64,000 nucleotides of DNA from a virus (lineage: Duplodnaviria; Heunggongvirae; Uroviricota; Caudoviricetes). Under the pieces are notes generated by a model that was not told the DNA's origin, did not search any database, and saw nothing but the letters and a program-made list of their open reading frames with translations. Position 1 is the first letter of the stretch. Each line of letters begins with the position of its first letter. Positions 1 through 63,214 of the stretch are shown here, piece after piece. The position numbers were made by a program, and so were the translations under genes. Location of the stretch: the IMG/VR virus record IMGVR_UViG_3300045988_145627, positions 1 through 64,000 of that record; one strand, 5' to 3'.

Positions 1-1
1 T

Positions 2-361
2 AAGCTACAGAAAGAGCTTGAGTCGCTTGTTCTGGACGATATCGAGGTTTTCGGCTTTGAAGAGCGTGAGTTGAATGTTCTCGTTGGCAGTATGACAGAA
101 GAAATGGACACCGATTCGCTAGTTATCGATCTTGGCGAAGAAACTAAACGACAGAAGGATGAACACACCGAGATCAGTCGTGAAGTTGCAGCGGAAGAAG
201 TACGTGTTGTCGACGTATTGGGCTTTAAAACGCTCCCTGCTGGCTCTGCCATTGTTGTTGGTGATTTGCTTGCCCACATGGAAGAAATGACGGGAGAAAG
301 CGGGGTAGACGCATTTGTGGCATATGCGGAGAAGATCTCTTCCGGGGAGATGGCTGCATGA
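2..361 (+). CDS. hypothetical acidic protein, 5' end probably outside window
   Basis: Reading frame is open from base 2 up to the ORF-track start at 71; stop overlaps next start (ATGA at 358-361); no recognisable motif. Confidence 0.4.
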   Translation, partial: KLQKELESLVLDDIEVFGFEERELNVLVGSMTEEMDTDSLVIDLGEETKRQKDEHTEISREVAAEEVRVVDVLGFKTLPAGSAIVVGDLLAHMEEMTGESGVDAFVAYAEKISSGEMAA

Positions 362-1023
362 GCAAATACATCATCAACGTATCGTTTCAGACACGCGTAA
401 ATAAAACCACGCGCACGTTGGAAATCGCTGAGTCGTTCGGGCTTGGCCTGGACGAAAAAGAGTGGACGCTTTACGACAATCTGGAGCTGGAAGTGAAGCA
501 GGGCGATGTGGTGTACATCACCGGCCAATCCGGTTCCGGCAAATCCGTTGTGCTGCGCGAGTTGCAACGCCAGATGAAGGATGAAGGGCTTTCTGTAGCC
601 TCCATCGATGATTTTACCTTCGATAATGAGGTTAACGTCATCGATCAGTTGGGCAAAACGACCAGTGATGCGCTTGGGTTGTTATCTATGGCTGGTCTGA
701 ACGATGCATATCTGTTTGTTCGCAAGCCTTCTGAAATGTCAGACGGCCAGAAATATCGTCTCAAGATTGCCAAACTGATTGAGTCAGGCGCTAAAGTATG
801 GGCTGCTGACGAGTTCGGCGCTGTTCTCGACCGTGTAACCGCTCAGGTTGTGGCGTCTAACCTCCAGCGTGCCGCTCGAAAGGTTGGTGCGACGGTAATG
901 GTGGCGACGACTCACGAAGACCTGAAGAACGCGCTGCGCCCGGATATGCAGATCACCAAGCACTACAAAGAACGCGTGAAGGTGGAATATCACAATGGTA
1001 GTCATGATGAGGTCCATTCATGA
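358..1023 (+). CDS. compact ABC-type ATPase (nucleotide-binding domain only)
   Basis: Walker A GQSGSGKS, signature-like MSDGQKYRL, Walker B VWAADEFG, H-loop-like ATTHED; start and stop overlap neighbours. Confidence 0.6.
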   Translation: MSKYIINVSFQTRVNKTTRTLEIAESFGLGLDEKEWTLYDNLELEVKQGDVVYITGQSGSGKSVVLRELQRQMKDEGLSVASIDDFTFDNEVNVIDQLGKTTSDALGLLSMAGLNDAYLFVRKPSEMSDGQKYRLKIAKLIESGAKVWAADEFGAVLDRVTAQVVASNLQRAARKVGATVMVATTHEDLKNALRPDMQITKHYKERVKVEYHNGSHDEVHS

Positions 1024-1910
1024 CGGACATCATCATTAAACGCTACCGCCCTGAAGAGTTTCCGCGTCATCTGGACTTTCTGGAGCGAATGACTGTTACA
1101 AAGGGAACTGTAGAGGACTGGCACGCTCTTAAGTCGCTTCACTACAAAACAGACGGCAAACCTTTCGCGCCAACTTACTATCGCTGCGAACTTGATGACC
1201 GTCTGGTGGGCGTCGTGGTTATGGCTTACCCGAAACTACTGTTGGCACCTCGCCACCGCATGTTTCCTAAGTTGAAACCAACCACTAATACCACCGTGGC
1301 TAACCAGTACTGGGGTCGGTACGTGAATAACAACTTTGCGGTGATCAGTCGCTCAGTTGTGGATACTCAGTATCGTGGCGTAGGCGTCTCTTATCGAATG
1401 ATTAACCTGGTTAGCAGGATGCATGACCGGCCAATCATTGAGATCCAGTCCTCGATGAGCAAATACAATCCCTTCGCCATGAAAGCAGGGTTTAAGTTCA
1501 TCCGCCCTGAGCGACCGAAGAGCTATGAAAGTGCACTGCGTGTGTTCCAGCGCCATTTCCGCTCCGACCCGGGTGATAACGAGGCGATCGTCAAAGAGTT
1601 GTTCGCTATGAGCGAGTCTCGTCGTCGCCGTGCGCTGCGCGATTTGGTGGCGGACTACCACAAGAACAGTTCTCTGGCAAAAGCTGGGCGGAATCGTGGC
1701 ACGACGATTCAGGACATTGCCGACAGTCTGGTGGACGAGGCCAGCATTGTGAAGCTGCTCAAGGACATTCACAACCTGAGCTTTACGTCTCCGTTGTATG
1801 GTGTGTACCGAAACCCTGACTTTGACCGTCGACTGCCTGACACGCTGCCACTGCTGGCATTCGACAAACAACCTTTGGATAAACCGTTAGAAATTGCTTT
1901 ACCGGCATAA
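1020..1910 (+). CDS. GNAT-fold acetyltransferase-like protein with C-terminal extension
   Basis: Motif-A-like QYRGVGVS after a hydrophobic strand and C-terminal NPFAMKAGFKFI resembling the GNAT N..A...Y.K.GF signature; start overlaps ATPase stop. Confidence 0.45.
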   Translation: MTDIIIKRYRPEEFPRHLDFLERMTVTKGTVEDWHALKSLHYKTDGKPFAPTYYRCELDDRLVGVVVMAYPKLLLAPRHRMFPKLKPTTNTTVANQYWGRYVNNNFAVISRSVVDTQYRGVGVSYRMINLVSRMHDRPIIEIQSSMSKYNPFAMKAGFKFIRPERPKSYESALRVFQRHFRSDPGDNEAIVKELFAMSESRRRRALRDLVADYHKNSSLAKAGRNRGTTIQDIADSLVDEASIVKLLKDIHNLSFTSPLYGVYRNPDFDRRLPDTLPLLAFDKQPLDKPLEIALPA

Positions 1911-1919
1911 GGATTTGCC

Positions 1920-2186
1920 ATGACGTTAACCGACAAACAAAAGGACATAATCAAAACGCTCAATCTCGGTTATGAGCGAGGTCATCTACTTGATCTGGAC
2001 GAATTGCTTGAAGTTTTGCCGTACAAGACAACCAAGCAAAGTATCCAGTTCTCAATTCGCGCTCTGATAAAAAAGGGGCTGGTGGAGAAAGGGCATACGC
2101 GCCAACGCAGTGACAATCGCTATCACCGCCGAACTCTTGGGTTAACCACTTTAGGTCGAGCCAAAGCGAAGTTACTGGTGATGTAA
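1920..2186 (+). CDS. small basic protein, possible winged-helix DNA binding
   Basis: 88 aa, basic C-terminus; begins 10 nt after previous stop; fold assignment is a guess. Confidence 0.35.
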   Translation: MTLTDKQKDIIKTLNLGYERGHLLDLDELLEVLPYKTTKQSIQFSIRALIKKGLVEKGHTRQRSDNRYHRRTLGLTTLGRAKAKLLVM

Positions 2187-2210
2187 TCGGTCTGGGAGCT
2201 TATTTAAAGA

Positions 2211-2265
2211 CCTGCATCTGTATATATAAATAATAAGTAACTTATTAAATATATACGGAAGCAGG
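2211..2265. promoter_or_regulatory. 55-bp imperfect palindromic element, copy A (CCTGC...TATATAAATAATAAGTAACTTATTAAATATATA...GCAGG)
   Basis: Near-identical copy at 34143-34197; outer CCTGC/GCAGG and inner AATAAGT/ACTTATT inverted arms. Confidence 0.6.
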
Positions 2266-2302
2266 CTTCGTAAGACATGCCAGATCTAATTAAACACACC
2301 AG

Positions 2303-2343
2303 AAAACAAGTTGGTTAGCAGATGCAGTAAACAAGTTGTTTTA
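2303..2343. promoter_or_regulatory. two AAACAAGTTGTTT-type palindromic operator-like sites upstream of terS
   Basis: aaaacaagttggtt and taaacaagttgtttta; same palindrome family at 31838, 35065 and 61081. Confidence 0.5.
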
Positions 2344-2381
2344 GAGCGCATGGACGCGCTCTGTGTGTTTTAGAGGGATCT

Positions 2382-3014
2382 ATGACGGTCGAAAAAGACG
2401 AGGTAAAAACTCGCCTGACACCAGCGGAGTGGGCCGAAGCTGAAGCCAAATGGACGTCAGGCGAATATACACTCTCAAAGCTGGAGGAAGAGTACGGCAT
2501 TCGTCGTGAAACACTCTCCAGACATTTCAAAAAGCGAGGATTAGAGAAAGGCGCGGACTCTGTTGGGAAGATGGTTCGTGAGTCTCTTAAATCTGACGCA
2601 GAGCTTCGCGCTAAAGCCCGTGCGGAAAAGATAGAAGAACGTCGTACACGTTATGACGGCTGGGCGTATGCGTTGGGGCAGATGGTGATGGTCGAAGTCA
2701 CTACGGCCAAACGTGAGGGTAAGCCTTTAGGGGCGATTGAGGATTCTCTCAAGAGCTTACAGAGAGCCAGTAATACCCTTGCAAAATGCTTTGAAGTTTC
2801 GTCCAAAGCATTGGGCATGGATCATGCGGAAAATGACGAGGAAGAAATTCCGAACCTGGTATTTGGTGAGCTTACGCCTTCCCAGGTGGCGAAATTACGT
2901 CAGGAAGACGACGAGCCTGAAATCATCGATGACGAATTGCTTGAGACGTTGGAAGAAGAAGCTCTAAGCGAATTTGATGCGACAGATGATGGAAGTGAAG
3001 GGGAGGACGAATAA
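2382..3014 (+). CDS. terS: terminase small subunit (putative)
   Basis: Immediately upstream of and abutting terL; N-terminal HTH-like segment TLSKLEEEYGIRRETLSRHFKKRG; acidic C-terminal tail. Confidence 0.5.
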   Translation: MTVEKDEVKTRLTPAEWAEAEAKWTSGEYTLSKLEEEYGIRRETLSRHFKKRGLEKGADSVGKMVRESLKSDAELRAKARAEKIEERRTRYDGWAYALGQMVMVEVTTAKREGKPLGAIEDSLKSLQRASNTLAKCFEVSSKALGMDHAENDEEEIPNLVFGELTPSQVAKLRQEDDEPEIIDDELLETLEEEALSEFDATDDGSEGEDE

Positions 3015-4270
3015 TGGCAATCCCGTCCTCACTCAGTCTTGTGCAACTGCATTCTGGACAGATGAAAGTCTTCCAGTCTCCGCATCGATTTAAAGTTGTT
3101 TGTGCTGGTCGACGCTGGGGAAAATCCCGGTTGTCGATCTCCACTATTATTCGTGCGGCGGCAAAGGAAAAAAAGCAAAGGGTCTGGTATGTCGCTCCTA
3201 CTTACCAGATGGCTCGCCAGATTTTGTGGGACGATCTACAGGAAGTTCTGCCTCGTAAGTGGGTTAGGAAAAAGAACGACACCACGATGACAATCGTGTT
3301 GAAGAACGGTTCGGAGATCGCCCTCAAAGGTGCTGATAAGCCTGACACTCTGCGCGGCGTAGCGTTGCATTTTGTAGTGCTTGATGAATTTCAGGATATG
3401 AAGGCTGACACCTGGTACAAGGTGTTACGACCTACTCTTTCATCGACACGCGGCGGTGCACTGATCATTGGTACGCCAAAAGGCTTCTCGGAATTTCACA
3501 AACTGTGGACGATAGGCCAGAACGTAGAGCTGCAAAGAAAGGGACAGTGGAAGAGCTGGCAGTTTGTAACTGCCGATTCTCCGTTTGTACCTACGGCGGA
3601 AATTGAAGCTGCTAAGAACGATATGGACCCCAAATCGTTCGCTCAGGAGTACCTGGCCAGCTTTGAGAACATGTCCGGGCGCGTTTACTACCCGTTCGAT
3701 CGTAACGTGCATGTAAAACCGCTTCAGTTCAACCCTCGGTTGCCTATATGGGTAGGGCAGGACTTCAACATTGACCCGATGTCTTCAGTAATTTTGCAAC
3801 CTCAGCCAAATGGTGAGCTATGGGCAATTGATGAATTGGTGCTCTTTTCCTCTAACACGGCAGAAGTTTGTGATGAGCTTGAGAGACGCTTCTGGCGCTG
3901 GAAATCACAGGTAACGGTATTTCCAGATCCGGCAGGTGCTTATCGCCAACATGCTCGTGGGGAGTCTGACGTAGACATATTCAAAGAGAAGGGATTCTTA
4001 CGTGTCGATTATTCGAAAAAGCACCCGCCAATTGCGGATCGTGTTAATGCTGTTAACCGAATGCTGATGTCCGCATCTGGAGATATCCGGCTGTATATCG
4101 ATCCGAAGTGCAAGCATTTGATTGATTCACTGGAAAAAGTCATCTACAAGCCTGGAACACGAGATATGGATAAGACAGGTGGCATTGAGCATAGTGCAGA
4201 CGCATTGGGCTATCCAGTACATCGTAGGTATCCAGTCAAAAACCGTGTTATTCTTGGTGGTTCTCGATAG
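3014..4270 (+). CDS. terL: terminase large subunit
   Basis: Walker A VVCAGRRWGKS, Walker B VVLDEFQDM; followed by portal gene. Confidence 0.8.
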   Translation: MAIPSSLSLVQLHSGQMKVFQSPHRFKVVCAGRRWGKSRLSISTIIRAAAKEKKQRVWYVAPTYQMARQILWDDLQEVLPRKWVRKKNDTTMTIVLKNGSEIALKGADKPDTLRGVALHFVVLDEFQDMKADTWYKVLRPTLSSTRGGALIIGTPKGFSEFHKLWTIGQNVELQRKGQWKSWQFVTADSPFVPTAEIEAAKNDMDPKSFAQEYLASFENMSGRVYYPFDRNVHVKPLQFNPRLPIWVGQDFNIDPMSSVILQPQPNGELWAIDELVLFSSNTAEVCDELERRFWRWKSQVTVFPDPAGAYRQHARGESDVDIFKEKGFLRVDYSKKHPPIADRVNAVNRMLMSASGDIRLYIDPKCKHLIDSLEKVIYKPGTRDMDKTGGIEHSADALGYPVHRRYPVKNRVILGGSR

Positions 4271-4296
4271 GTAAGTAATTATCTAAGGTTATTCAA

Positions 4297-5871
4297 ATGG
4301 AATTGAACGACAAACAAATTAAGGATCTGGTGGCGCGACGCCACCCGGAATACGAAAAGAAAAAAGAACATTGGGACTTCCTCGCCAGCACTTACGCTGG
4401 CGGGCGTGGTTGGTTTACAGACAATATCTTTCGTTACTTTAAAGAGGGAGATCAGGAGTTTAAGGAGCGAGTTGAACGTGCTTATCGCTTTAACCACACT
4501 CGTGAGGTGGTAAACCTCATCAACAAATATCTCTTTAAAGAAGACATTCATAGAAATATCGAAGAGGCACCAGAGCAGATCCGCAATTTCTGGAAACGTG
4601 CGACTCGCCAGAATGCCTCTATTGACTCATTTATGGCCGCTATTGATTTGCAGTCGTCTATTTACGGTCGCATATGGGTTGTTGTCGATAGCACGATGAG
4701 TGGTGATGTTGAGTCAGTAGCTGACGAGAAAAAGAAAGATGCTCGCGCCTACGCCTACTGGATTTCACCTCAGCAAATGCTGGATGTGGCATGGGACGAC
4801 GACGGGAATATGTTATGGGCGTTAATTGTGGAAGTCGCTCGCGATGACGCAGATCCTTTTACTTCTACAGGTCAGGAATACCAACGTTATCGTCTGTGGA
4901 CACAAAACGAGTGGTATCTGTTCCGTGAGGAAGTGAAGAAGGGCGCTGGTGGAGCAGGTCGCCGTCAGGCAAAAGTTATTTTAGAGGATAGCGGTGAGCA
5001 TAATCTCGGCGTAGTTCCTGTGTTTCCTGTTGATTGTATTGGAGAAAGTGAATCACCGTATTTCAGCCCATCGTTGATCGATGATATCGCTTATCTTGAT
5101 CGTGCGGTTGCAAACTATCTGTCAAACCTTGATGCCATTATTCAGGATCAGACATTTAGCCAGTTGGCTATACCAGTACAGTCGCTTTTACCTGGTGATG
5201 AAAACCACACTAAAGTGCTTGAAATGGGCACAAAGCGAGTCTTCACCTACGATTCTGAAGGTGGAAACCAGCCGTTTTATCTGTCACCAGACCCGAAACA
5301 AGCTCAGATGATCATCACTACGATTAAGACGGTGATTAACGAAATCTACCATTCAGTTGGTGTAGCTGGTGAGCGAACGAAGCAGGACAACGCACAGGGA
5401 ATCGATAACTCATCTGGTGCCGCAAAAATGTATGACTTCCAGCGTGTAAATAGCTTGCTTGTCACAAAAGCAGAGCGTCTGGAAAGGGCTGAACGCCAAA
5501 TCATGCTACTGGTTGCGAAATGGATGGGGGTAGATCTGGACGAAGACCACTCTTTAATTGCGTATCCAGAAAGTTTCGATATTCGTGGCCTTACTGATGA
5601 ATTTTCTGTTGCCGAGAAACTGTCATTACTTCAGGCACCGGACTCTGTACGTCGTCACCAGATGGAAATGCTTATTGAGAAGATTTTCCCGAACATTACT
5701 GAGGCGATGAAAAAGGAATTTGATAAAGATCTCTTGAATTTTCCTCCAAAAAATGATCTAAATACCCTTGAAAATAAGTCATCACTTACTTATGATCGTG
5801 GTGCAGCCCAAGAAAGCGGGCAAGATCAACCCCGAGGGAATGGGGACTCATCTACTCAAGAGAACGAGTGA
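4297..5871 (+). CDS. portal protein (putative)
   Basis: 524 aa ORF directly after terL with RBS aagg; size and position typical. Confidence 0.65.
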   Translation: MELNDKQIKDLVARRHPEYEKKKEHWDFLASTYAGGRGWFTDNIFRYFKEGDQEFKERVERAYRFNHTREVVNLINKYLFKEDIHRNIEEAPEQIRNFWKRATRQNASIDSFMAAIDLQSSIYGRIWVVVDSTMSGDVESVADEKKKDARAYAYWISPQQMLDVAWDDDGNMLWALIVEVARDDADPFTSTGQEYQRYRLWTQNEWYLFREEVKKGAGGAGRRQAKVILEDSGEHNLGVVPVFPVDCIGESESPYFSPSLIDDIAYLDRAVANYLSNLDAIIQDQTFSQLAIPVQSLLPGDENHTKVLEMGTKRVFTYDSEGGNQPFYLSPDPKQAQMIITTIKTVINEIYHSVGVAGERTKQDNAQGIDNSSGAAKMYDFQRVNSLLVTKAERLERAERQIMLLVAKWMGVDLDEDHSLIAYPESFDIRGLTDEFSVAEKLSLLQAPDSVRRHQMEMLIEKIFPNITEAMKKEFDKDLLNFPPKNDLNTLENKSSLTYDRGAAQESGQDQPRGNGDSSTQENE

Positions 5872-27700: not shown

Positions 27701-28777
27701 AACACATATTTCATGCTAACAGCATCAGGAGACACATTAGGTTCATGGAACGGTTTGCGACCTATTACAATTAATAATACCAGCGGTGCTGTATCAATTG
27801 GTAATGGACTAAATGTGACTGGTGGCGTAAATGGTAGTTTGAACGGTAATGCTTCAACAGCTACGAAGTTGCAAACAGCGAGAAACATCAATGGTGTTAA
27901 GTTTGATGGTTCAGGCGATATCAATATTAATACATTGGTATCTCGTGGCCGAGTTACGGCGTTAAGCGGCTCTACTCAAGGCACTGCTGGCATTCAAATG
28001 TATGAGGCGTACAACAATAGCTACCCGACCATGTATGGCAACGTATTGCACATGAAAGGTGCGAGTGCTGCTGGTGAGGGAGAGTTGCTTATTGGCTGGA
28101 GTGGTACGAGCGGTGCACATGCGCCAGTTTTCATTCGCTCACGAAGAGATAACACAGGTGCGGCATGGTCAGCGTGGGCGCAGGTATATACCGCTAAGGA
28201 TTCAATCCCTGGTGTGAATACAACTGGTAATCAGAACACTACTGGTAATGCCGCAACCGCCACAAAATTGCAGACAGCAAGGAAAATTGCTGGTGTGGCG
28301 TTTGATGGCTCTGCCGATATAACTTTGACTGCGGCTAACCTTAATGCTTACACGAAAACAGAGGTAACAAACCTTCTAAGTTCCTATGTGAAGAGCAGTG
28401 CTCTTCCAAGCATGACTGTGCGAACTTCCTCTGTTTCAGGTGGGGATATGGGCATGAGCTTGTCCGCATTCATTAGCCACCTAAAATCAAATGGGGCGTT
28501 TAGCAAAAGTTATTGGATTGGCTTTGGCGATGCTATGGGATTCAATGCTGGCAGTATCAACAATATAACGGGATTTGGTGCTGTAGAATTAGCAGAATCT
28601 ATAATCGAAGTTTTTAATCTACCTAACGGTGATTATACAATTCGTTTAACAACGTCACATAAAGCTGACTACGGTGGAGTTACAAACGCAATCCTCGTTT
28701 ATCACTACCGTAGTAATAGAAGTCCGTCAGGTCAATGGCTGAAATTTGCAGGTACTGTTGGGGCAACAAGTAACTGA
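24740..28777 (+). CDS. side tail fibre protein
   Basis: 1345 aa; Ala/Ser-rich SETNA-type repeats and five copies of NAATATKLQTAR.I.GV.FDGSANI tail-fibre repeat. Confidence 0.85.
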   Translation: MWYREGTITFTQGSNTLVGAGTAWNVTANGVLPGMIVIGPDNKLYEIKRVISDTNIVLSEPYTGETQSEVPCRIITTYEGDLTQFSARFTALMSRMSADSKSMRSWLTALDEVTIEREDGTEVTVKPLMQIVNEHNENVEWYKNNTDAIDAAGDKAREAAASAAAAAESANTAGEKASQASQSASAAASSQSAASASATAAKKSETNAAASQQSAATSASTATTKASEAATSARDAAASKEAAKSSETSAASSASNAASSATAAGNSAKAAKTSETNAKSSETAAGQSASTAAGSKTAAALSASAASTSAGQASASATAAGKSAESAASSASTATTKAGEATEQASAAARSASAAKTSETNAKASETRAESSKTAAASSASSAASSASSASASKDEATRQASAAKGSATTASTKATEAAGSATAASQSKTAAESAATRAEAAADRAEEIAGAVAMEDASLTTKGVVKLSSAVDSTSESLAATPKAVKAAYDNAEKRLQKDQNGADIPDKGRFLNNINVYSKGEVDKKKGMRKYTFSAPANAVSGKWYPVVFRRTGGGTDELASRVVITTYSSAGGYAMNNCEFNGFVMPGGWSDRGSYAVGFFSIYSTVERSIHSIIASVKDDDLCSVFYVETRAFPIQIFAEEGLNVIVPTADYAVGQTTYKWGATDPLSESTNAQIILDFKNGRGYYCSHPFISSLSGNAATATKLQTARSIGGVGFDGSANINLPGVNTTGNQNTTGNAATATKLQTARTIGGVSFDGTANINLPGVNTTGNQNTTGNAATATKLQTARTINGVSFDGSANISLSPANIGCPASPTGWLTTGSNGGAITTAQLVTLLQNNGAFNTKAWIARCAWAYANSATIPNSETGCGVIPLAGAVIEVFNNGSSSNNYTIRITTATTTSVSGALTNAEFIYVFNGTDYSPGWRRVYNTKNKPTASDVGALPLTGGTLSGGLTSSGEIISKYANGFRIAYGSFGFFIRNDGSNTYFMLTASGDTLGSWNGLRPITINNTSGAVSIGNGLNVTGGVNGSLNGNASTATKLQTARNINGVKFDGSGDININTLVSRGRVTALSGSTQGTAGIQMYEAYNNSYPTMYGNVLHMKGASAAGEGELLIGWSGTSGAHAPVFIRSRRDNTGAAWSAWAQVYTAKDSIPGVNTTGNQNTTGNAATATKLQTARKIAGVAFDGSADITLTAANLNAYTKTEVTNLLSSYVKSSALPSMTVRTSSVSGGDMGMSLSAFISHLKSNGAFSKSYWIGFGDAMGFNAGSINNITGFGAVELAESIIEVFNLPNGDYTIRLTTSHKADYGGVTNAILVYHYRSNRSPSGQWLKFAGTVGATSN
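25200..26100 (+). repeat. low-complexity Ala/Ser/Thr-rich coding repeats inside tail fibre gene
   Basis: Repeated ...SETNAKSSETAAGQSAS... units; source of spurious alternate-frame ORFs. Confidence 0.65.
26843..27162 (+). repeat. tandem 120-nt (40-aa) tail-fibre repeats
   Basis: Three consecutive GNAATATKLQTAR(S/T)IGGV.FDGSANINLPGVNTTGNQNTT units; further copies near 27849 and 28205. Confidence 0.7.
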
Positions 28778-28979
28778 TTTAGACATTATTTATATGGCTG
28801 TGAGGTTTAAAATGCGATCTCACAGCCGCAATCATAGGGATATATTAGTGAGTTACTAGATACGAATTTGAACAGCCGTTAAACGGCATATGCATAGATA
28901 GGTAAGTATATACCTATAATTGAAAGGAGAAGTGTGATATAAATCCGCCATCCCGATTTGACTTTTCATGGAGGAAAAC

Positions 28980-29303
28980 ATGTCGAACGAGATGGCGGGC
29001 GTTACAACAGAGCAAGTTGAGCGTATTGCCGCGATCGTTGCTCGGGAGGTTGTTGGCAAATTAGGTAAAGAGCTACGTGAAGAAATTGGCCAGGAGGTCA
29101 ATGATCAGCTGAAAACCTACTTTGGTGATATGACCCCGGCGCAACATAGTATTCAACACTCCAATCTGGACAAACTCCTTAACCGGTTAGATTCCATCTC
29201 AAGTGGGTTCTTTGGCGGCATTGTTTCTAAAATAACGTCGTTCATTATTACCGCACTGCTTTTGGGGTTAGCCGCGTATGGCGTAAAAAGTGGACTGCAA
29301 TAA
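28980..29303 (+). CDS. small membrane-anchored protein, holin/antiholin candidate
   Basis: ATG at 28980 with RBS ggagg; single C-terminal TM ITSFIITALLLGLAAYGV; heads lysis-cassette position. Confidence 0.35.
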   Translation: MSNEMAGVTTEQVERIAAIVAREVVGKLGKELREEIGQEVNDQLKTYFGDMTPAQHSIQHSNLDKLLNRLDSISSGFFGGIVSKITSFIITALLLGLAAYGVKSGLQ

Positions 29304-29316
29304 CAGGAGATCAAGG

Positions 29317-30009
29317 ATGAAGACTCCGAGAGGCATTCGTAATAATAACCCCGGTAATCTTGATAAAGGATCACCGTGGCAAGGTCTGGTTGCGAATCCA
29401 GACGAACCGCGCTTTTGCACGTTTAAAGACCCTGTTTGGGGGATTCGTGCGCTGGCGGTGACTCTAATTACCTACCACGATAAACGTCGCGCAAAAGACG
29501 GCACAAGTATCGATACCATTCGTGAAGTTATTGAACGCTGGGCACCGCCGAATGAAAACAATACTGACGCCTACATTAATGAGGTGTCTAAAGCCGTTGG
29601 TGTAACCGCAGACATGATCATCGATCTGCATGATTACGACATCCTTCGACCTTTGGTTGAGGCAATCATTCGCCACGAGAATGGCCGAGGCCCGCTAAAA
29701 ACGCTGAACACCTGGTATGCGGCAGAAGTTATTGAGGAAGGTCTGCGTCGAGCTGGCGTTGTTAAGCCGGTGAAAACCGTGAAGGCTGTTCCTGTAACTA
29801 AAGAAACTGCAGGCGCAACTGTTACAGCAGGTATTGGTCTGGCGCAGCTGGCCGATGTTATGCCGCAGGTTTCCGCTGCTATGGATAAGGCACAAGGTCA
29901 TATCTCTAGCGGGGATACAGTACGCATCATCTTCGGCATTGCCACTATTGTTGTGGCTGGATTCATTGCCTGGTCGCAGGTAAGAAGACACCAGAAAGGG
30001 ATGGTCTAA
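29317..30009 (+). CDS. putative endolysin/peptidoglycan hydrolase with C-terminal membrane anchor
   Basis: ATG at 29317 with RBS aggag; N-terminal RNNNPGNL motif; sits between membrane protein and spanins; enzymatic class not established. Confidence 0.4.
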   Translation: MKTPRGIRNNNPGNLDKGSPWQGLVANPDEPRFCTFKDPVWGIRALAVTLITYHDKRRAKDGTSIDTIREVIERWAPPNENNTDAYINEVSKAVGVTADMIIDLHDYDILRPLVEAIIRHENGRGPLKTLNTWYAAEVIEEGLRRAGVVKPVKTVKAVPVTKETAGATVTAGIGLAQLADVMPQVSAAMDKAQGHISSGDTVRIIFGIATIVVAGFIAWSQVRRHQKGMV

Positions 30010-30413: not shown

Positions 30414-30590
30414 CAGAAGAGGACTTTTCTAACATAAAATTTGCATATTATTAGAGCACAAGGTAGATTTGGCACATGGATGTCAAGTAAATCATCCCTT
30501 GCATTAATGCTGCGACGCATACTCGTAGCCTCTAAACCCTGACAAGGGTCGCCGCTATGACATTAAGTTAATACCGGCTAAGGTGGACAC

Positions 30591-30974
30591 ATGCTGAACG
30601 AAAAACGTTCTATACAAACAATTCGCGATTGCACGAGTGTTATCGCAACTCATGTGCTGAATAAGCGCAAACTTGAGGTGCGTAAACTTAACAACGATGC
30701 GACTGCGCCAAAAGACACTCGCTTCATCGTAACTTTCAAAGACGATGTTGAGAATGCTGGTGCCAGTGTAAAACCGTTGGCTGAAGCGATTTTCCTGAAC
30801 GATCGTGTTCGTTTCATTGTGAAGCCAGCAAAACAATACCCTGAATTAGCACGGTTTAGTGACCAATTCTCTGAAATTATTGAGAGTGCAATTCGCCGCT
30901 TTCTTAATACTCATGGTAGCATTGTCAGCAATACAACTGCTGATGGTACTGCTCTAAGATGGCACCTACACTAG
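30591..30974 (+). CDS. hypothetical protein
   Basis: ORF with RBS aaggtgg. Confidence 0.4.
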   Translation: MLNEKRSIQTIRDCTSVIATHVLNKRKLEVRKLNNDATAPKDTRFIVTFKDDVENAGASVKPLAEAIFLNDRVRFIVKPAKQYPELARFSDQFSEIIESAIRRFLNTHGSIVSNTTADGTALRWHLH

Positions 30975-31711
30975 AACGCACATACTCTAAAAATCTTTAT
31001 GAGTTTCCTCACCGTGGGGAAACTCGCGTTTCACGTTTTGGCTACCTCATCAACGAAGCATCGCTTTTCAAAATATCTGAAATAACCATTATCGAGCCTG
31101 ATGATGATATCTGTCTGTATATCCTGATGGAGAAAGTTGGAGCACGAGATCAGGGTGAACTGATGGACTTCATTCTGGACAGAGGCGAAGATGGAATGTC
31201 TGATTCGGACATTATTCAAGCAATTCTGCGTTCCGACATGCTCGATCAGAGCAGAAACACGATAGCAGGCAGAATTGCCTTGCGTGAATACACATTCATC
31301 GAGGATGGGGTAGAGATTGACTGCTATCAGATTGCAGGTGTTGAAACAGAAAGAGCAATAAGGCAAAGGGGACTGTGCAACCTCACGTATCGCTTCCTCC
31401 TTCATTGGTACGAACATCTTGTCTGTGATTACAATCAGACCATTCCTGGCGCAAAAATCTGGGCCGGTCCATTAATGCGAACAGGTGATGTAAGAATTTA
31501 CAACGCAAAAACTGAGACGTTCGAGGATGTGTTAGGCGAATATGGGATGGGAAAAGAAACCGGCTTTTTGCCGTGGAACAGAGGATTGTTACTTGATCCA
31601 GAATTAAGCTCTTGGTTTCCAAATAAGGTGCAAGTTAACGTTGAGAAATTTATCGTACTTATCATCTCCCGCAAAACAAGAACCCCAGTTGGTTTATATC
31701 TAAAAGATTAA
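30959..31711 (+). CDS. hypothetical protein
   Basis: 250 aa ORF overlapping previous stop; followed by terminator. Confidence 0.45.
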   Translation: MAPTLERTYSKNLYEFPHRGETRVSRFGYLINEASLFKISEITIIEPDDDICLYILMEKVGARDQGELMDFILDRGEDGMSDSDIIQAILRSDMLDQSRNTIAGRIALREYTFIEDGVEIDCYQIAGVETERAIRQRGLCNLTYRFLLHWYEHLVCDYNQTIPGAKIWAGPLMRTGDVRIYNAKTETFEDVLGEYGMGKETGFLPWNRGLLLDPELSSWFPNKVQVNVEKFIVLIISRKTRTPVGLYLKD

Positions 31712-31716
31712 CAATT

Positions 31717-31742
31717 AGGCGACTTCGGTCGCCTTTTTTGTT
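31717..31742 (+). terminator. intrinsic terminator
   Basis: AGGCGAC-ttcg-GTCGCCT followed by TTTTTT. Confidence 0.7.
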
Positions 31743-31887
31743 AACAGCCATTGATTCTCGCCTAAAAATTCTAAGGCAGCACCTACCATTTAACCTTTAC
31801 ACCGCAGCCGTAGGCATTTAGGCTATATCACATATAAGAAAACAAGTTGTTTCAGACAATAATAATAGACGCAAAGGGAACTCTCCA

Positions 31888-32556
31888 ATGACCAAGATCT
31901 TTGTGGTTGGCGGCACAAAGGGCGGGCCTGGCAAATCCACCGTTGCCCAGCAAATTGCCGTTTGCCTGAAAGTCAAAAAGAAGAAGAAGGTTTATATCAC
32001 TGATATAGATATTCAGCGCACGACAACAAGCTGGTGTGAAGACCGTCGACAGAACGAAGACCTTGAGCTGATTCCTTTTGCATACGTTCAGGATGACATC
32101 ATTAAGCACCTAAAATCGCTTCAGGGTAGAGCTGAGTTTGTAGTGGTAGATGCTGGTGGCTTTGACTCCGAAATTCAGCGACAAGCGATGCTGATGGCCG
32201 ACGTTATCATTATCCCGCTTCGTCCTAAGCGTCGTGATTTGAAATCTCTGCGTGACATCGATCCTATTATCGACAATGTTCGTAATGTAAACGATAAAGT
32301 GAAGGTCCGCGCGGTCATGAACCAGTGCCCGGCTTTGCCATCACAAGTGTCTCGCATTCTGGCGGCTAAAGAGATTGTCGAGACGTTTGGCATCGAGTCT
32401 GCGCCAGTCAATCTATATAACCGCAACGTCTACGATGATGCGGAAGAGTCTGGTCGTTCTATCTTTGAAATGACCGGTAGCGAGCGCGACAAAAAGGCGG
32501 AAGCCGAGTTTGAAGAATTTGTAGATTATCTGTTGAGTCTGGAGGAAGAAGAATAA
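31888..32556 (+). CDS. parA: ParA/Soj-family partition ATPase
   Basis: Deviant Walker A GGTKGGPGKST, Walker B-like FVVVDAGG; RBS aaggga. Confidence 0.85.
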   Translation: MTKIFVVGGTKGGPGKSTVAQQIAVCLKVKKKKKVYITDIDIQRTTTSWCEDRRQNEDLELIPFAYVQDDIIKHLKSLQGRAEFVVVDAGGFDSEIQRQAMLMADVIIIPLRPKRRDLKSLRDIDPIIDNVRNVNDKVKVRAVMNQCPALPSQVSRILAAKEIVETFGIESAPVNLYNRNVYDDAEESGRSIFEMTGSERDKKAEAEFEEFVDYLLSLEEEE

Positions 32557-62422: not shown

Positions 62423-62634
62423 TGGCATTAACACTGGCAGGTCTGGAAATCGAGAAAACAAGCGGCTACTGGCGTGCTAAGGGTTTCAAGCAGCCTGGCA
62501 TTCTTGAGCGTCTGGAACGTGAAGATGGGTATATCGTCCACCAGCGGCGTGAATGGCGTATGTACGATCCAGAAACAGGAAAACTGACTACAAAAGCCGG
62601 AACACTTTGGGGTCTGTTAAAGAAAATACACTAA
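62422..62634 (+). CDS. hypothetical small protein
   Basis: 70 aa, start overlaps previous stop. Confidence 0.35.
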   Translation: MALTLAGLEIEKTSGYWRAKGFKQPGILERLEREDGYIVHQRREWRMYDPETGKLTTKAGTLWGLLKKIH

Positions 62635-62682
62635 ATGCAAACTGACTGCGGCACGTTCCGCAGTCATATTTCATAGTCGTCA

Positions 62683-63214
62683 CCGCTGACAGCATACACA
62701 ATCAACTACCGCTGATAGCATATCGAGAGTCTATCTCACCGCTCACAGCATACTTTACTCGATTTTTTACCGCTGACAGCATACTTAAGACATTGCATGA
62801 ATAATGTGTACCGGTATGGGTATAACCAGAACAAAATTACCGCTGGCAGCATACGAAGGTCTGACATATACCATTAATTACCGCTGATAGCATATCCAAA
62901 CAAAAATTCCTCAATAAAACACCGCTGACAGCATACGTTCTATCAGGGAGCAGCAGGCAATAAATGCCTTTCACTACAAGCAATCAGCGCAATAGCAATA
63001 GAATGTTAGTGAGCGCAAACCTATATGGAATGCACTCTTCGAGGTTAGTAACCACTGGGGAGGTATGACAGAGCATTGAGTGGTGATAGATGATTTACCG
63101 CCCACAGCATACGTTCATCTCACTATACCGCTGGTAGCATATCTTTAACCGTTCACAGCATACTTTTCAGAAAAATAGCCGCTGATAGCATACATTTCAC
63201 CGCTGACAGCATAT
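62683..63214. repeat. iteron array: 12 direct copies of 15-bp CCGCTGA(C/T)AGCATA(C/T), putative plasmid replication origin
   Basis: Copies at 62683, 62709, 62739, 62770, 62840, 62881, 62922, 63098, 63128, 63149, 63179, 63200 in two clusters; adjacent to rep-like gene. Confidence 0.85.

Follow-up and report, generated by a model that had tools for sequence, protein, structure and literature searches.

Organization of the locus

The DNA analyzed here (the window) is a 64,000-nucleotide stretch of a viral genome, the left end of which carries four tightly packed genes on the top (+) strand. The first reading frame, at positions 2–361, covers the 3′ half of ParB2, a ParB-like gene whose start codon and ParB_N domain lie upstream of the window; the part inside specifies the C-terminal 119 amino acids. 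It is followed by the gene of an ABC ATPase (positions 358–1023, 221 aa), whose start overlaps the ParB2 stop codon, and by that of a GNAT-fold protein (positions 1020–1910, 296 aa, pI 9.8), whose start in turn overlaps the ATPase stop codon. The last gene of the operon, at positions 1920–2186, begins 9 nt after the GNAT stop codon and codes for an 88-aa winged-helix protein. The two ATGA stop/start overlaps reported in the first-pass annotation are present at positions 358–361 and 1020–1023, and Shine-Dalgarno-like purine runs (GGGGAGA, GAGG and AAGGA) are found 6–8 nt 5′ of the three starts. Such overlaps are frequent in compact phage genomes and alone carry little weight; that the module is non-random is shown by its conserved gene set and by the fusion of its genes in relatives. 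No membrane-protein gene is present in the operon.

The first-pass annotation described a four-gene operon. In complete relatives, however, the operon has six genes, and a paralogous ParB-like gene (ParB1) lies farther upstream. Relatives that are 98–99% identical over the window DNA have the order ParB1-ParB2-ABC-GNAT-wHTH, followed by the TerS-like, TerL and portal genes. PhiR41_1 is 97.8% identical over window positions 1–4300, and the phage-plasmid Cyrano is 99% identical over positions 1–2248. By comparison with these sequences, the window genes are the final four of a six-gene operon and supply the downstream two-thirds of a module conserved among viruses.

The operon is separated from the TerS-like gene by 195 bp (positions 2187–2381). 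This interval contains an AT-rich palindrome (2211–2265), two 17-nt direct repeats (2300–2341) and a G+C hairpin with a T-run (2342–2363). The linear records of SSU5 and Cyrano, as deposited, end at window positions 2247 and 2248, respectively, both within the palindrome. Beyond the gap the terminase genes begin, as the first-pass annotation had placed them: a gene for a TerS-like DNA-binding protein (2382–3014, +; phrog_867) and the TerL gene (3014–4270, +; Terminase_6N, 37.2 bits), for which the Cyrano annotation gives the names of the two terminase subunits, small and large. Next comes the portal gene, at positions 4297–5871. The TerS-like and TerL genes provide context and are outside the module.

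ParB-like proteins

The reading frame at 2–361 had been taken as a whole gene for an acidic protein. Its product matches phrog_930 ("ParB-like partition protein") with an E-value of 2.3e-48 over profile positions 104–223 of 223 and, at 119/119 positions, agrees exactly with the end of PhiR41_1 XSB42497, a ParB-like protein of 222 aa. It is thus the C-terminal part of such a protein, truncated at the left end of the window. The acidity was noted correctly (pI 4.2); it belongs to the C-terminal half of ParB2, outside ParB_N. In PhiR41_1 the Pfam domain ParB_N (PF02195, cut-off 26.3) is recognized in ParB1 with 50.0 bits and in the N-terminus of ParB2 with 35.2 bits, and the arginine-rich, GxxRxxA-like box II reads GGEHRWRAA and GHGRREAA. 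Neither ParB1 nor ParB2 of PhiR41_1 gave an HTH_ParB match. Given the lack of a recognizable HTH and the strong acidity, a direct DNA-clamp role of these proteins is hypothetical. A ParB2 homologue has been named "DNA modification methylase" by one annotator.

The ABC ATPase

The ATPase matches Pfam ABC_tran (PF00005) with 50.1 bits (cut-off 25), phrog_293 with an E-value of 6e-59 and ABC nucleotide-binding domains of solved structure with an E-value of 1e-13. Its motifs stand in the canonical order. Walker A (GQSGSGKS, positions 523–546, aa 56–63) was located by a regular expression on the translation, and its G-S-G-GK residues are invariant in fused relatives. The signature, MSDGQ (736–750, aa 127–131), is a variant of the canonical LSGGQ; LSDGQKYRY is the family-wide form in the fused relatives. 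Walker B with the catalytic Glu (VWAADE, 796–813, aa 147–152) has its D-E pair invariant in both alignments of fused relatives, and the H-loop His is found in a TH dipeptide (910–915, aa 185–186). The 221-aa protein consists of the nucleotide-binding domain only, is free of a coiled-coil insert and resembles transporter-type domains. A permease or transmembrane partner is absent from the operon and from every related context examined, and the description of a bare ABC domain without a permease is thus borne out by the motifs, the ABC_tran match and the gene content. A transporter reading was rejected because the permease is absent in all contexts examined; the ATPase is not that of an ABC importer or exporter. 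Against the Pfam CbiA/ParA family it scored only 19 bits (cut-off 25.4), an NCBIfam scan gave only sub-threshold transporter-type matches, and no match to a packaging or partition ATPase family was found.

The GNAT-fold and winged-helix proteins

The 296-aa protein had been called GNAT-like from its motifs, and the GNAT fold was confirmed by a structure model and structural matches. Of the two outcomes named beforehand as refuting the first-pass reading, an ATPase of a known packaging or partition family and a second protein without the GNAT fold, neither was obtained. Among the 60 matches listed, the best are mostly protein N-terminal or lysine acetyltransferases (Naa10, RimI, Gcn5). Its C-terminal part was described earlier as a 130-aa extension; the model, analyzed by DSSP, does not show a plain tail but helices at residues 169–254, followed by two more strands (259–264 and 275–277). 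Residues ~169–254 may therefore form a helical insert ahead of the last GNAT strands. The acyl-CoA pyrophosphate-binding motif Q/R-x-x-G-x-G/A is present as QYRGVG at positions 1368–1385 (+) and is followed by VS (aa 117–124 with VS). R119, G122 and Y125 are invariant columns among 37 homologues, and R-x-x-G-x-[GAS] is also found in fused relatives.

Sequence profiles recognize this protein less readily. It scored 14.4 bits against Pfam Acetyltransf_10 (cut-off 23.6), an NCBIfam scan gave nothing, and a PDB sequence search returned only noise (AlkD at E ~1). Homologous domains of Jace gp86 (35.9 bits) and P0246 (25.6 bits) exceed the Pfam Acetyltransf_1 cut-off of 20.7; for the Jace gp86 C-terminus the GNAT assignment came from the Pfam scan, and its hhalign comparison with the SSU5-type GNAT alignment was weak (probability 20%). 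Since the fold is confirmed and the CoA-binding motif is invariant, the enzyme is probably active.

The small basic protein of the first-pass annotation is indeed basic (pI 10.2) and is modeled as a winged helix. It matches phrog_900 with an E-value of 2e-45 and has weak LexA_DNA_bind, Sta1 and Lrs14 matches. Single-sequence AF2 gave a topology of H-strand-H-H-hairpin with pLDDT >85 for residues 1–50 and 73 for residues 51–60. The best Foldseek matches of the model were LexA N-terminal wHTH domains, with a probability of 0.99 but an E-value of 0.14. The protein is kept in SSU5-like relatives. An 88-aa gene is also located upstream of a ParB-ABC-GNAT triple fusion in L252; it has no similarity to the window protein, so the wHTH is a partner in certain lineages only.

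Gene fusions and distribution of the module

A profile of the 296-aa protein found 884 representatives, of which the best 150 were checked for fusion. In 70 of these 150, the window ATPase and GNAT parts were both matched in one chain, always in the order ABC then GNAT. Since both parts share one chain in so many representatives, the pair forms one functional unit. In phmmer comparisons with fused archaeal-virus proteins the ATPase matched the N-terminal halves at ~1e-65 and the GNAT part gave ~1e-20. Here the ATPase and GNAT are encoded by two genes with a 4-nt overlap, and they are split likewise in all SSU5-like relatives; they are best described as a split form of a family, COG2401, that is usually a single polypeptide.

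ParB is associated with this pair both by fusion and by neighborhood. At the N-terminus of relatives of 666–699 aa, hhalign finds a homologue of the SSU5-type ParB_N domain (probability 97.6%, E 3.6e-12). A ParB_N gene lies directly upstream of the fused ABC-GNAT gene in phages Jace, EastWest and BiggityBass; in 315.4 and MismyG it directly precedes the ABC gene, and such a direct upstream position is also seen in 52 of 75 informative IMG/VR loci. No ParB homologue was found by phmmer in 80 archaeal-type viral loci. These associations assign ParB to the ABC-GNAT unit, of which it is the most informative partner; the link was outside the view of the first-pass annotation.

The location next to the terminase genes, taken earlier as incidental, is conserved across unrelated viruses. 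Of 73 informative loci, 55 have TerL within 3 kb downstream of the module, the median gap being 495 bp. In a freshwater virus, the ParB-ABC-GNAT triple fusion has a small gene, TerL and portal directly downstream, and in (pro)viruses of Bathyarchaeia and related Thermoproteota TerL is directly upstream of ABC-GNAT in ~20 of 35 loci. The linkage of ABC-GNAT to ParB upstream and TerL downstream recurs in SSU5-like phages, streptococcal prophages, actinophages and the freshwater virus; archaeal tailed viruses share the linkage to TerL, with no ParB found. In phiE255 the module comes after the tail-fiber genes, also a late-gene position. One lineage instead has its ABC and GNAT genes beside primase and DnaB, with no terminase called within the 15-kb locus.

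Carriers include SSU5-like phage-plasmids of E. coli, Klebsiella and Salmonella, Streptococcus pyogenes prophages and archaeal viruses; a single bacterial subtype is already present on at least 588 IMG/VR contigs. The module is present in integrated prophages and in viruses without sign of plasmid maintenance, and it is syntenic and conserved in a phage lineage of ~100–120 kb across several Proteobacteria. A viral-contig scan with the SSU5-type alignment returned only relatives 80–100% identical and no independent context; the archaeal set came from a scan with a second, fused-family alignment, from which the lower rows, ordinary ABC transporters, were left out.

Several neighbors are recurrent. 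A gene of ASCH, the family of N4-acetylcytidine amidohydrolases, is found in 14 of 80 loci and, in addition, in streptococcal phages; others are PanD (aspartate decarboxylase, once with a CoA-transferase) and a formyltransferase. Some relatives are fused to TFIIB repeats or to a family-B DNA polymerase, or bear an intein. tRNA genes are close to the module in MismyG and nickie, and Cyrano encodes MetRS.

Possible function of the module

From the folds, motifs, gene fusions and neighborhood described above we infer a substrate, a chemistry, a timing and a benefit to the phage. We estimate at about 0.4 the probability that the module is an NTP-gated, acyl-CoA-dependent modifier of nucleic acid, likely phage DNA, made together with the late genes. 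Its parts would be an NTP binder of the ParB/Srx fold (two paralogues), a soluble ABC ATPase, a GNAT acyl-CoA transferase and a small wHTH protein. The ParB-fold proteins and the wHTH may seat the complex on its nucleic-acid target, of which replicated phage DNA is the likeliest; the ABC dimer, in binding and hydrolyzing ATP, would expose or clamp this target, and the GNAT would move an acyl group from acyl-CoA onto a base amino group. This group could be acetyl, and a different acyl may apply in some lineages, as PanD and CoA-transferase are among the neighbors. Transcription of the module with or just before the packaging genes would mean that progeny genomes are marked before encapsidation, and marked genomes might then be shielded from host restriction-type defenses.

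The basic GNAT and wHTH proteins, the fusions to TFIIB and DNA polymerase and the precedent of ParB-methyltransferase proteins all point to nucleic acid, and the recurrent neighbors suggest acyl-amine or base chemistry. The conserved late-gene location agrees with the proposed timing, to which the lineage with primase and DnaB beside the module is an exception. The terminase-adjacent site is a common accessory-gene slot in temperate phages, so that adjacency to terminase alone is no proof of a link to packaging. ParB folds also act as plain NTP-binding or enzyme modules (PMC12704722), and no base modification in SSU5-like phages has been reported in the searchable literature. A more far-reaching form of the proposal is that ParB-ABC-GNAT is an unrecognized ATP-dependent writer of an acyl mark (of the N4-acyl-cytosine or N6-acyl-adenine type) on viral DNA before packaging, in bacterial and archaeal tailed viruses alike, with lineage-specific tailoring or erasing by ASCH, by PanD with CoA-transferase and by formyltransferase; this we regard as rather doubtful.

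The structural matches of Naa10, RimI and Gcn5 type could be explained if the ABC-GNAT pair acetylated a protein, either viral (terminase, portal, capsid or DNA-bound) or from the host (for takeover or anti-defense), with the ParB fold serving only as an NTP-binding regulator. A bacterial ParB-fold-acetyltransferase fusion does bind GTP and has been discussed as a nucleotide-regulated enzyme (PMC12704722), and the location among head and packaging genes would suit a virion-protein substrate. However, a protein target leaves the TFIIB, DNA polymerase B, wHTH and ASCH associations unexplained, as well as the need for an ABC motor, and except for TerL there is no conserved candidate substrate gene common to the archaeal and bacterial contexts. 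We consider this explanation unlikely.

The ASCH neighbor bears on a further alternative. Proteins of this family hydrolyze N4-acetylcytidine (PMC6972931; bioRxiv 10.64898/2026.02.27.708502), and as erasers they have been shown so far to act on tRNA and free nucleosides, so that this association favors an RNA target just as well. On this view the module would be functionally analogous to TmcA/NAT10, placing N4-acetylcytidine or a related mark on tRNA of the host or the phage to tune late translation. The logic of an ATPase joined to a GNAT is that of TmcA, an enzyme described in bioRxiv 10.64898/2026.02.27.708502; removal of ac4C from tRNA has been shown for the family of the recurrent ASCH neighbor; and the tRNA genes of MismyG and nickie and the MetRS of Cyrano fit such a role. 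Even so, tRNA acylation appears quite improbable to us.

The module could also assist packaging or segregation without any covalent modification of DNA: ParB clamps and an SMC/Rad50-like ABC protein would organize or mark the concatemer near pac/cos, or partition the phage-plasmid, with the GNAT in a regulatory role. Recruitment of an ABC-type SMC ATPase by ParB is an established theme in bacteria, and adjacency to TerS/TerL and to genome or contig ends is kept in many lineages. The ATPase, however, is a transporter-type domain without a coiled-coil insert, the invariant CoA-binding motif implies catalysis, and the lineage with primase and DnaB has its module away from a terminase gene. Plasmid partition as the main explanation was rejected, since Cyrano annotates a separate ParA and RepA elsewhere in its genome and the module occurs in integrated prophages and non-plasmid viruses; the module is probably not a plasmid partition system. 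An accessory of this kind is very unlikely.

The least probable explanation, a defense, exclusion or toxin element (an ATPase-regulated GNAT toxin for which the wHTH serves as antitoxin or repressor, or else a system of superinfection exclusion), would fit with the temperate nature of many carriers, with the general abundance of GNAT toxins paired with small DNA-binding antitoxins and with a KacT-type pair that the Cyrano annotation lists elsewhere in the genome, but it is opposed by gene order and a ParB/TerL context unlike those of type II GNAT toxin-antitoxin pairs, by the synteny of the module throughout the ~100–120 kb phage lineage and by the PADLOC scan, where matches were limited to generic P-loop similarity and the GNAT protein had none.

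If the module does modify nucleic acid, DNA or RNA bases would be acylated by an enzymatic route that is new. Among phage DNA-modifying activities with a GNAT fold only Mom would precede it, and no earlier one would have an ABC ATPase and a ParB-fold switch as its drive; the module would also bear on phage evasion of restriction and other defenses. The module is widespread in bacterial and archaeal viruses, including clinically relevant SSU5-like phage-plasmids, and the routine database labels "ABC transporter", "ParB partition protein" and "DNA methylase" are misleading. Should the target prove to be a protein, the question would still be directly open to test in tractable E. coli phages, since coupling of the module to the terminase region is conserved.

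Comparison with known systems

The module resembles ParABS in that a ParB_N-fold protein gene stands beside a P-loop ATPase gene on a phage-plasmid, and databases name the product "ParB-like partition protein". The ATPase is nevertheless of the ABC and not of the ParA/MinD type, and the ParB-like proteins show no HTH_ParB domain.

In type II GNAT toxin-antitoxin systems (TacT/KacT-like) an RHH or HTH antitoxin is encoded upstream, whereas here a GNAT of 296 aa has an ATPase upstream and a wHTH downstream; this distinction is based on gene order, the coverage of GNAT toxins by PADLOC and NCBIfam being unconfirmed. In PADLOC-DB v2 the ATPase had only generic P-loop/ABC matches (mad3, E 2e-13, partial), the wHTH matched in part the end of a CARF-protein model (E 4.5e-5), and no match was obtained for the ParB fragment or the GNAT protein. 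The bracket of "modification, defense or anti-defense" proposed in the first-pass annotation was reasonable: gene context favors modification, and a known defense system finds no support in these generic matches.

The closest known relative is COG2401/"MK0520", an ABC-type ATPase fused to a predicted acetyltransferase, the two halves of which are homologous to both window proteins. Common motifs are the N-terminal F.T...T.R...AFGLG, LSDGQKYRY, (F/L)HY(K/R), R-x-x-G-x-[GAS], YNPF..KAG(F/M) and the C-terminal Y.(I/V)(W/Y).NP. The system described here differs in being split into two translationally coupled genes and in the company of a wHTH gene and two genes of the ParB-like type. The COG2401 name is also the one given to close relatives in their source annotations. 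The protein families are already catalogued, and COG2401 gives a name but no mechanism; we found no description of the module, of the COG2401/MK0520 family or of a function in the searchable literature; elsewhere an earlier comparative-genomics account may still exist.

Mom of phage Mu is a GNAT-fold DNA adenine methylcarbamoylase, and the position of mom in the Mu genome is comparable to the late-gene and packaging position of the module. No sequence similarity between Mom and the GNAT protein was detected, the structural match to Mom was no better than those to many ordinary GNATs, and Mom works without the help of an ATPase or a ParB protein.

TmcA/NAT10 combines a P-loop ATPase with a GNAT, and ATP hydrolysis presents the nucleic-acid base to the acetyl-CoA site. 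This architectural logic is shared with the module, but the ATPase is helicase-like in TmcA/NAT10 and of the ABC class here, and the module has a ParB partner and no tRNA-binding domain. The window proteins gave no match to this family in Pfam, NCBIfam or PDB sequence searches, and TmcA is absent among the 60 listed structural matches of the GNAT protein.

Where the ParB fold occurs in phages, its usual fusion partner is a DNA methyltransferase (PMC12704722). Such fusion proteins (ParB_N with N6_N4_Mtase or Methyltransf_23) likewise combine a ParB/Srx NTP-binding module with a group-transfer enzyme (PMC12704722). The module differs from them in the use of GNAT acyl-CoA chemistry instead of SAM and in the ABC ATPase interposed between the two activities, and its parts are coupled mostly by neighborhood and only sometimes by fusion.

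Composition and organization of the module

Analysis of the left edge of the window supported most of the gene calls made in the first-pass annotation, which had described a four-gene operon encoding an acidic protein, an ABC ATPase, a GNAT-like protein and a small basic protein. The last three are complete open reading frames at 358-1023, 1020-1910 and 1920-2186, and both ATGA overlaps are present together with plausible ribosome-binding sites. The "acidic protein" is not a gene of its own: its reading frame runs past the left window edge, and its 119 residues are the C-terminal half of a ParB-like protein. Against PHROG 930 ("ParB-like partition protein") they align with just the C-terminal half of the profile (E 2e-48, positions 104-223), and they are identical to the last residues of a 222-aa protein of the related phages PhiR41_1 and Cyrano, the N-terminus of which is a ParB_N domain. 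Complete relatives carry a second, paralogous ParB-like gene just upstream, with a UvsW-type helicase in divergent transcription. Their layout replaces the four-gene operon with the unit ParB1-ParB2-ABC-GNAT-wHTH, of which ParB1 and half of ParB2 therefore lie outside the window. No sigma-70-like promoter was predicted in window positions 1-3200 (2.9 expected by chance), which is consistent with transcription of the operon starting upstream of the window.

Among relatives, the place where the ABC gene meets the GNAT gene is a hot spot of insertion (locus L003, 6961-7999; L004, 7655-7984; L247, 5041-7001), occupied either by small genes (Phage_gp49_66, RyR domain) or by a Methyltransf_21 gene with a sulfotransferase-like gene. 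The window has no insert there; its ABC and GNAT genes overlap.

The description of the ATPase as a bare ABC nucleotide-binding domain was borne out: the protein passes the Pfam ABC_tran threshold, contains every canonical motif, with the signature in the variant form MSDGQ, and has no membrane-protein neighbour. A transporter was rejected, as no permease is encoded in any context examined. The 88-aa wHTH protein is basic (pI 10.2) and conserved inside the SSU5-like group. Its predicted structure is helix-strand-helix-helix-hairpin, and the closest structural neighbours are LexA-type winged helices, with E-values that are weak for so short a domain.

Positions 1-4300 share 97.8-99.2% identity with two SSU5-like phage-plasmids of E. 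coli, CMS-2020a and PhiR41_1, and positions 1-2248 are 98.9% identical to Cyrano, whose linear record stops there. With Klebsiella phages and Salmonella phage SSU5 the identity of the region is ~80-88%. At these identities the module copy belongs to a well-sampled phage lineage. The near-identical cluster (at least 90% identity) around the GNAT protein has 1,192 member sequences and the protein families of the module are already catalogued in COG and PHROG, so the copy is not new as a sequence.

ATPase, GNAT protein and ParB as one unit

A profile search of 1.84 billion representatives with the GNAT protein found 884 relatives. The distant ones are mostly 450-500 aa long and carry the GNAT part in the C-terminal half; their N-terminal half was identified by Pfam and phmmer as the same ABC ATPase. 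Both parts occur in a single chain in 70 of the best 150 of the 884 representatives, and family-specific motifs common to the fused relatives are found along both window proteins. The fused protein bears the label COG2401, a name used by the annotators of Cyrano and of JGI records. These comparisons indicate that the ATPase and the GNAT protein form one functional unit, and that the window carries a split version of the COG2401 protein. Further family representatives show a family-B DNA polymerase, ABC and GNAT as one called reading frame (P0178, P0205), a LAGLIDADG intein inside the ABC domain (P0165), TFIIB repeats at the C-terminus (P0154), or ~430-aa N-terminal extensions (P0195, P0204, P0246) with a possible PD-(D/E)xK-like motif, a P-loop being seen in P0195 and P0204.

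In four relatives, 666-699 aa long, an additional N-terminal segment precedes a zinc ribbon. In profile-profile comparison this segment matched SSU5-type ParB proteins over 101 columns (97.6% probability, E 3.6e-12). A ParB_N gene lies directly upstream of the fused ABC-GNAT gene in Rhodococcus/Gordonia phage Jace, Arthrobacter phage EastWest and Gordonia phage BiggityBass, and of the split ABC and GNAT genes in S. pyogenes prophage 315.4 and S. mitis phage MismyG; in all five its end overlaps the start of the next gene or stops a few bases short. We sampled 80 bacterial-subtype IMG/VR loci out of at least 588; of the 75 with enough upstream sequence, 52 have a ParB_N-like gene as the immediate upstream neighbour on the same strand. 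Fusion and linkage together argue that ParB belongs to the ABC-GNAT unit.

Position beside the terminase and sequence signals

The position of the module beside the terminase is conserved, with exceptions. A TerL-like gene was located downstream on the same strand within 3 kb in 55 of 73 informative loci among the 80 (median gap 495 bp). Immediately downstream of the gene for P0223, a ParB-zinc ribbon-ABC-GNAT triple fusion, come a small gene, TerL, portal and a Mu-F-like gene, an order that matches the window, and in BiggityBass the first four genes from the left genome end encode ParB, ABC-GNAT, a formyltransferase and terminase. In archaea (Bathyarchaeia, other Thermoproteota, Nitrososphaeria) the fused protein occurs among tailed-virus genes (tube, gp10-like and YQBQ-like tail proteins), and TerL is the gene directly before it in ~20 of 35 loci. 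One phage lineage departs from this pattern: its ABC and GNAT genes, which flank a methyltransferase and a sulfotransferase-like gene, have primase and DnaB as neighbours. Mu-like phage phiE255 is another exception, with the module after the tail-fibre genes.

The module was also observed at contig ends far above chance frequency (archaeal-type contigs L167-L246, bacterial-type L261-L340). Among the archaeal-type contigs, 23 of 80 end less than 400 bp past the ABC-GNAT match and 0 of 80 start that close upstream; in many bacterial-type contigs ParB and ABC-GNAT are the first genes, as in BiggityBass. Genuine genome termini could account for this bias, as could the trimming of proviruses at gene boundaries.

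Between the operon and the TerS-like gene lies an AT-rich near-perfect palindrome at 2211-2265 (arms 2211-2227/2249-2265 and 2223-2238/2240-2255). The deposited linear records of SSU5 and Cyrano stop within it, at window positions 2247 and 2248. The palindrome may mark a true terminus of the genome or a pac/cos-related site, or these ends could be just a shared record-start convention. Further on, 2300-2375 holds two 17-nt direct repeats (CAGAAAACAAGTTGGTT and CAGTAAACAAGTTGTTT), then a G+C hairpin carrying a T-run (2342-2363) and repeated TGTTTTAGAG, all ending less than 20 nt upstream of the start codon of the TerS-like gene. Should this hairpin act as a terminator, transcripts would have to read through it to reach TerS. 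An ACAAGT core shows partial conservation in Pseudomonas phage nickie.

Recurrent neighbours and existing annotations

Next in frequency among the neighbours are ASCH-domain genes (14 of the 80 IMG/VR loci, in most cases immediately downstream, and streptococcal phages too); ASCH proteins are N4-acetylcytidine amidohydrolases and tRNA ac4C erasers (PMC6972931; bioRxiv 10.64898/2026.02.27.708502). Aspartate decarboxylase (PanD) is encoded directly downstream of the module in four loci and in Jace, where it is followed by a CoA-transferase-III-like fragment (gp87-gp88; L249, 6101-7212), 3' of ABC-GNAT. A Formyl_trans_N protein is encoded 3' of ABC-GNAT in BiggityBass (gp3, annotated there as a tRNA methyltransferase; L258, 1823-2473) and phiE255 (L259, 5074-5688). 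The PanD, CoA-transferase and formyltransferase neighbours hint that the transferred group, or its processing, varies by lineage.

Public annotations of the module are inconsistent and probably misleading. ParB2 of PhiR41_1 (L001, 5693-6361; homologous to window 2-361) is labelled "DNA modification methylase". RefSeq SSU5 and PHROG 886 name the GNAT protein "ABC transporter ATP-binding subunit", and the ATPase of the streptococcal phages is listed as "ABC iron siderophore transporter".

By the Cyrano annotation (28190-29975, +2247), window ~30440-32220 is expected to encode a GNAT toxin of KacT type and its antitoxin, as well as a ParA partition gene with a RelE/ParE-like gene after it, all apart from the module. 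Outside the window, the Cyrano annotation lists another small "ABC transporter ATP-binding protein" amid genes of nucleotide metabolism (74621-75265) and a protein with an ASCH domain (62432-63076).

Proposed function

A ParB-fold NTP switch, a soluble ABC ATPase and a GNAT with an intact CoA site would best fit modification of nucleic acid. The basic character of the GNAT and wHTH proteins, the relatives with TFIIB repeats, DNA polymerase B fusion or intein, the late-gene/packaging location and the habitual fusion of phage ParB folds to DNA methyltransferases (PMC12704722) all count in the same direction. We infer, with a probability of about 0.4, that the module would carry out an NTP-gated, acyl-CoA-dependent modification of nucleic acid, the target most probably being progeny phage DNA before packaging. 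Protein acetylation by the module is unlikely given these pointers to nucleic acid.

TmcA-like RNA acylation is distinctly improbable. Neither by sequence nor by best structural match is the GNAT protein a member of the TmcA or Mom family.

A non-covalent role in packaging or segregation, to which the ParB folds and terminase-side position could also be fitted, is very unlikely. The module is probably not a plasmid partition system: near-identical Cyrano annotates separate ParA and RepA, the ATPase is not ParA-like, and both archaeal viruses and integrated prophages carry the module. A toxin or defence role is the least probable reading, the module having no specific match to a catalogued defence system.

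In the searchable literature we found no description of the module as a unit (ParB, ABC and GNAT, with or without wHTH), although prior naming of the ABC clade is possible, nor of its fusion series, its terminase-side position conserved across bacterial and archaeal viruses, or its ASCH, PanD and formyltransferase partners. We regard the module as a variant on two themes already known: phage modification enzymes coupled to ParB, and GNATs coupled to an ATPase.
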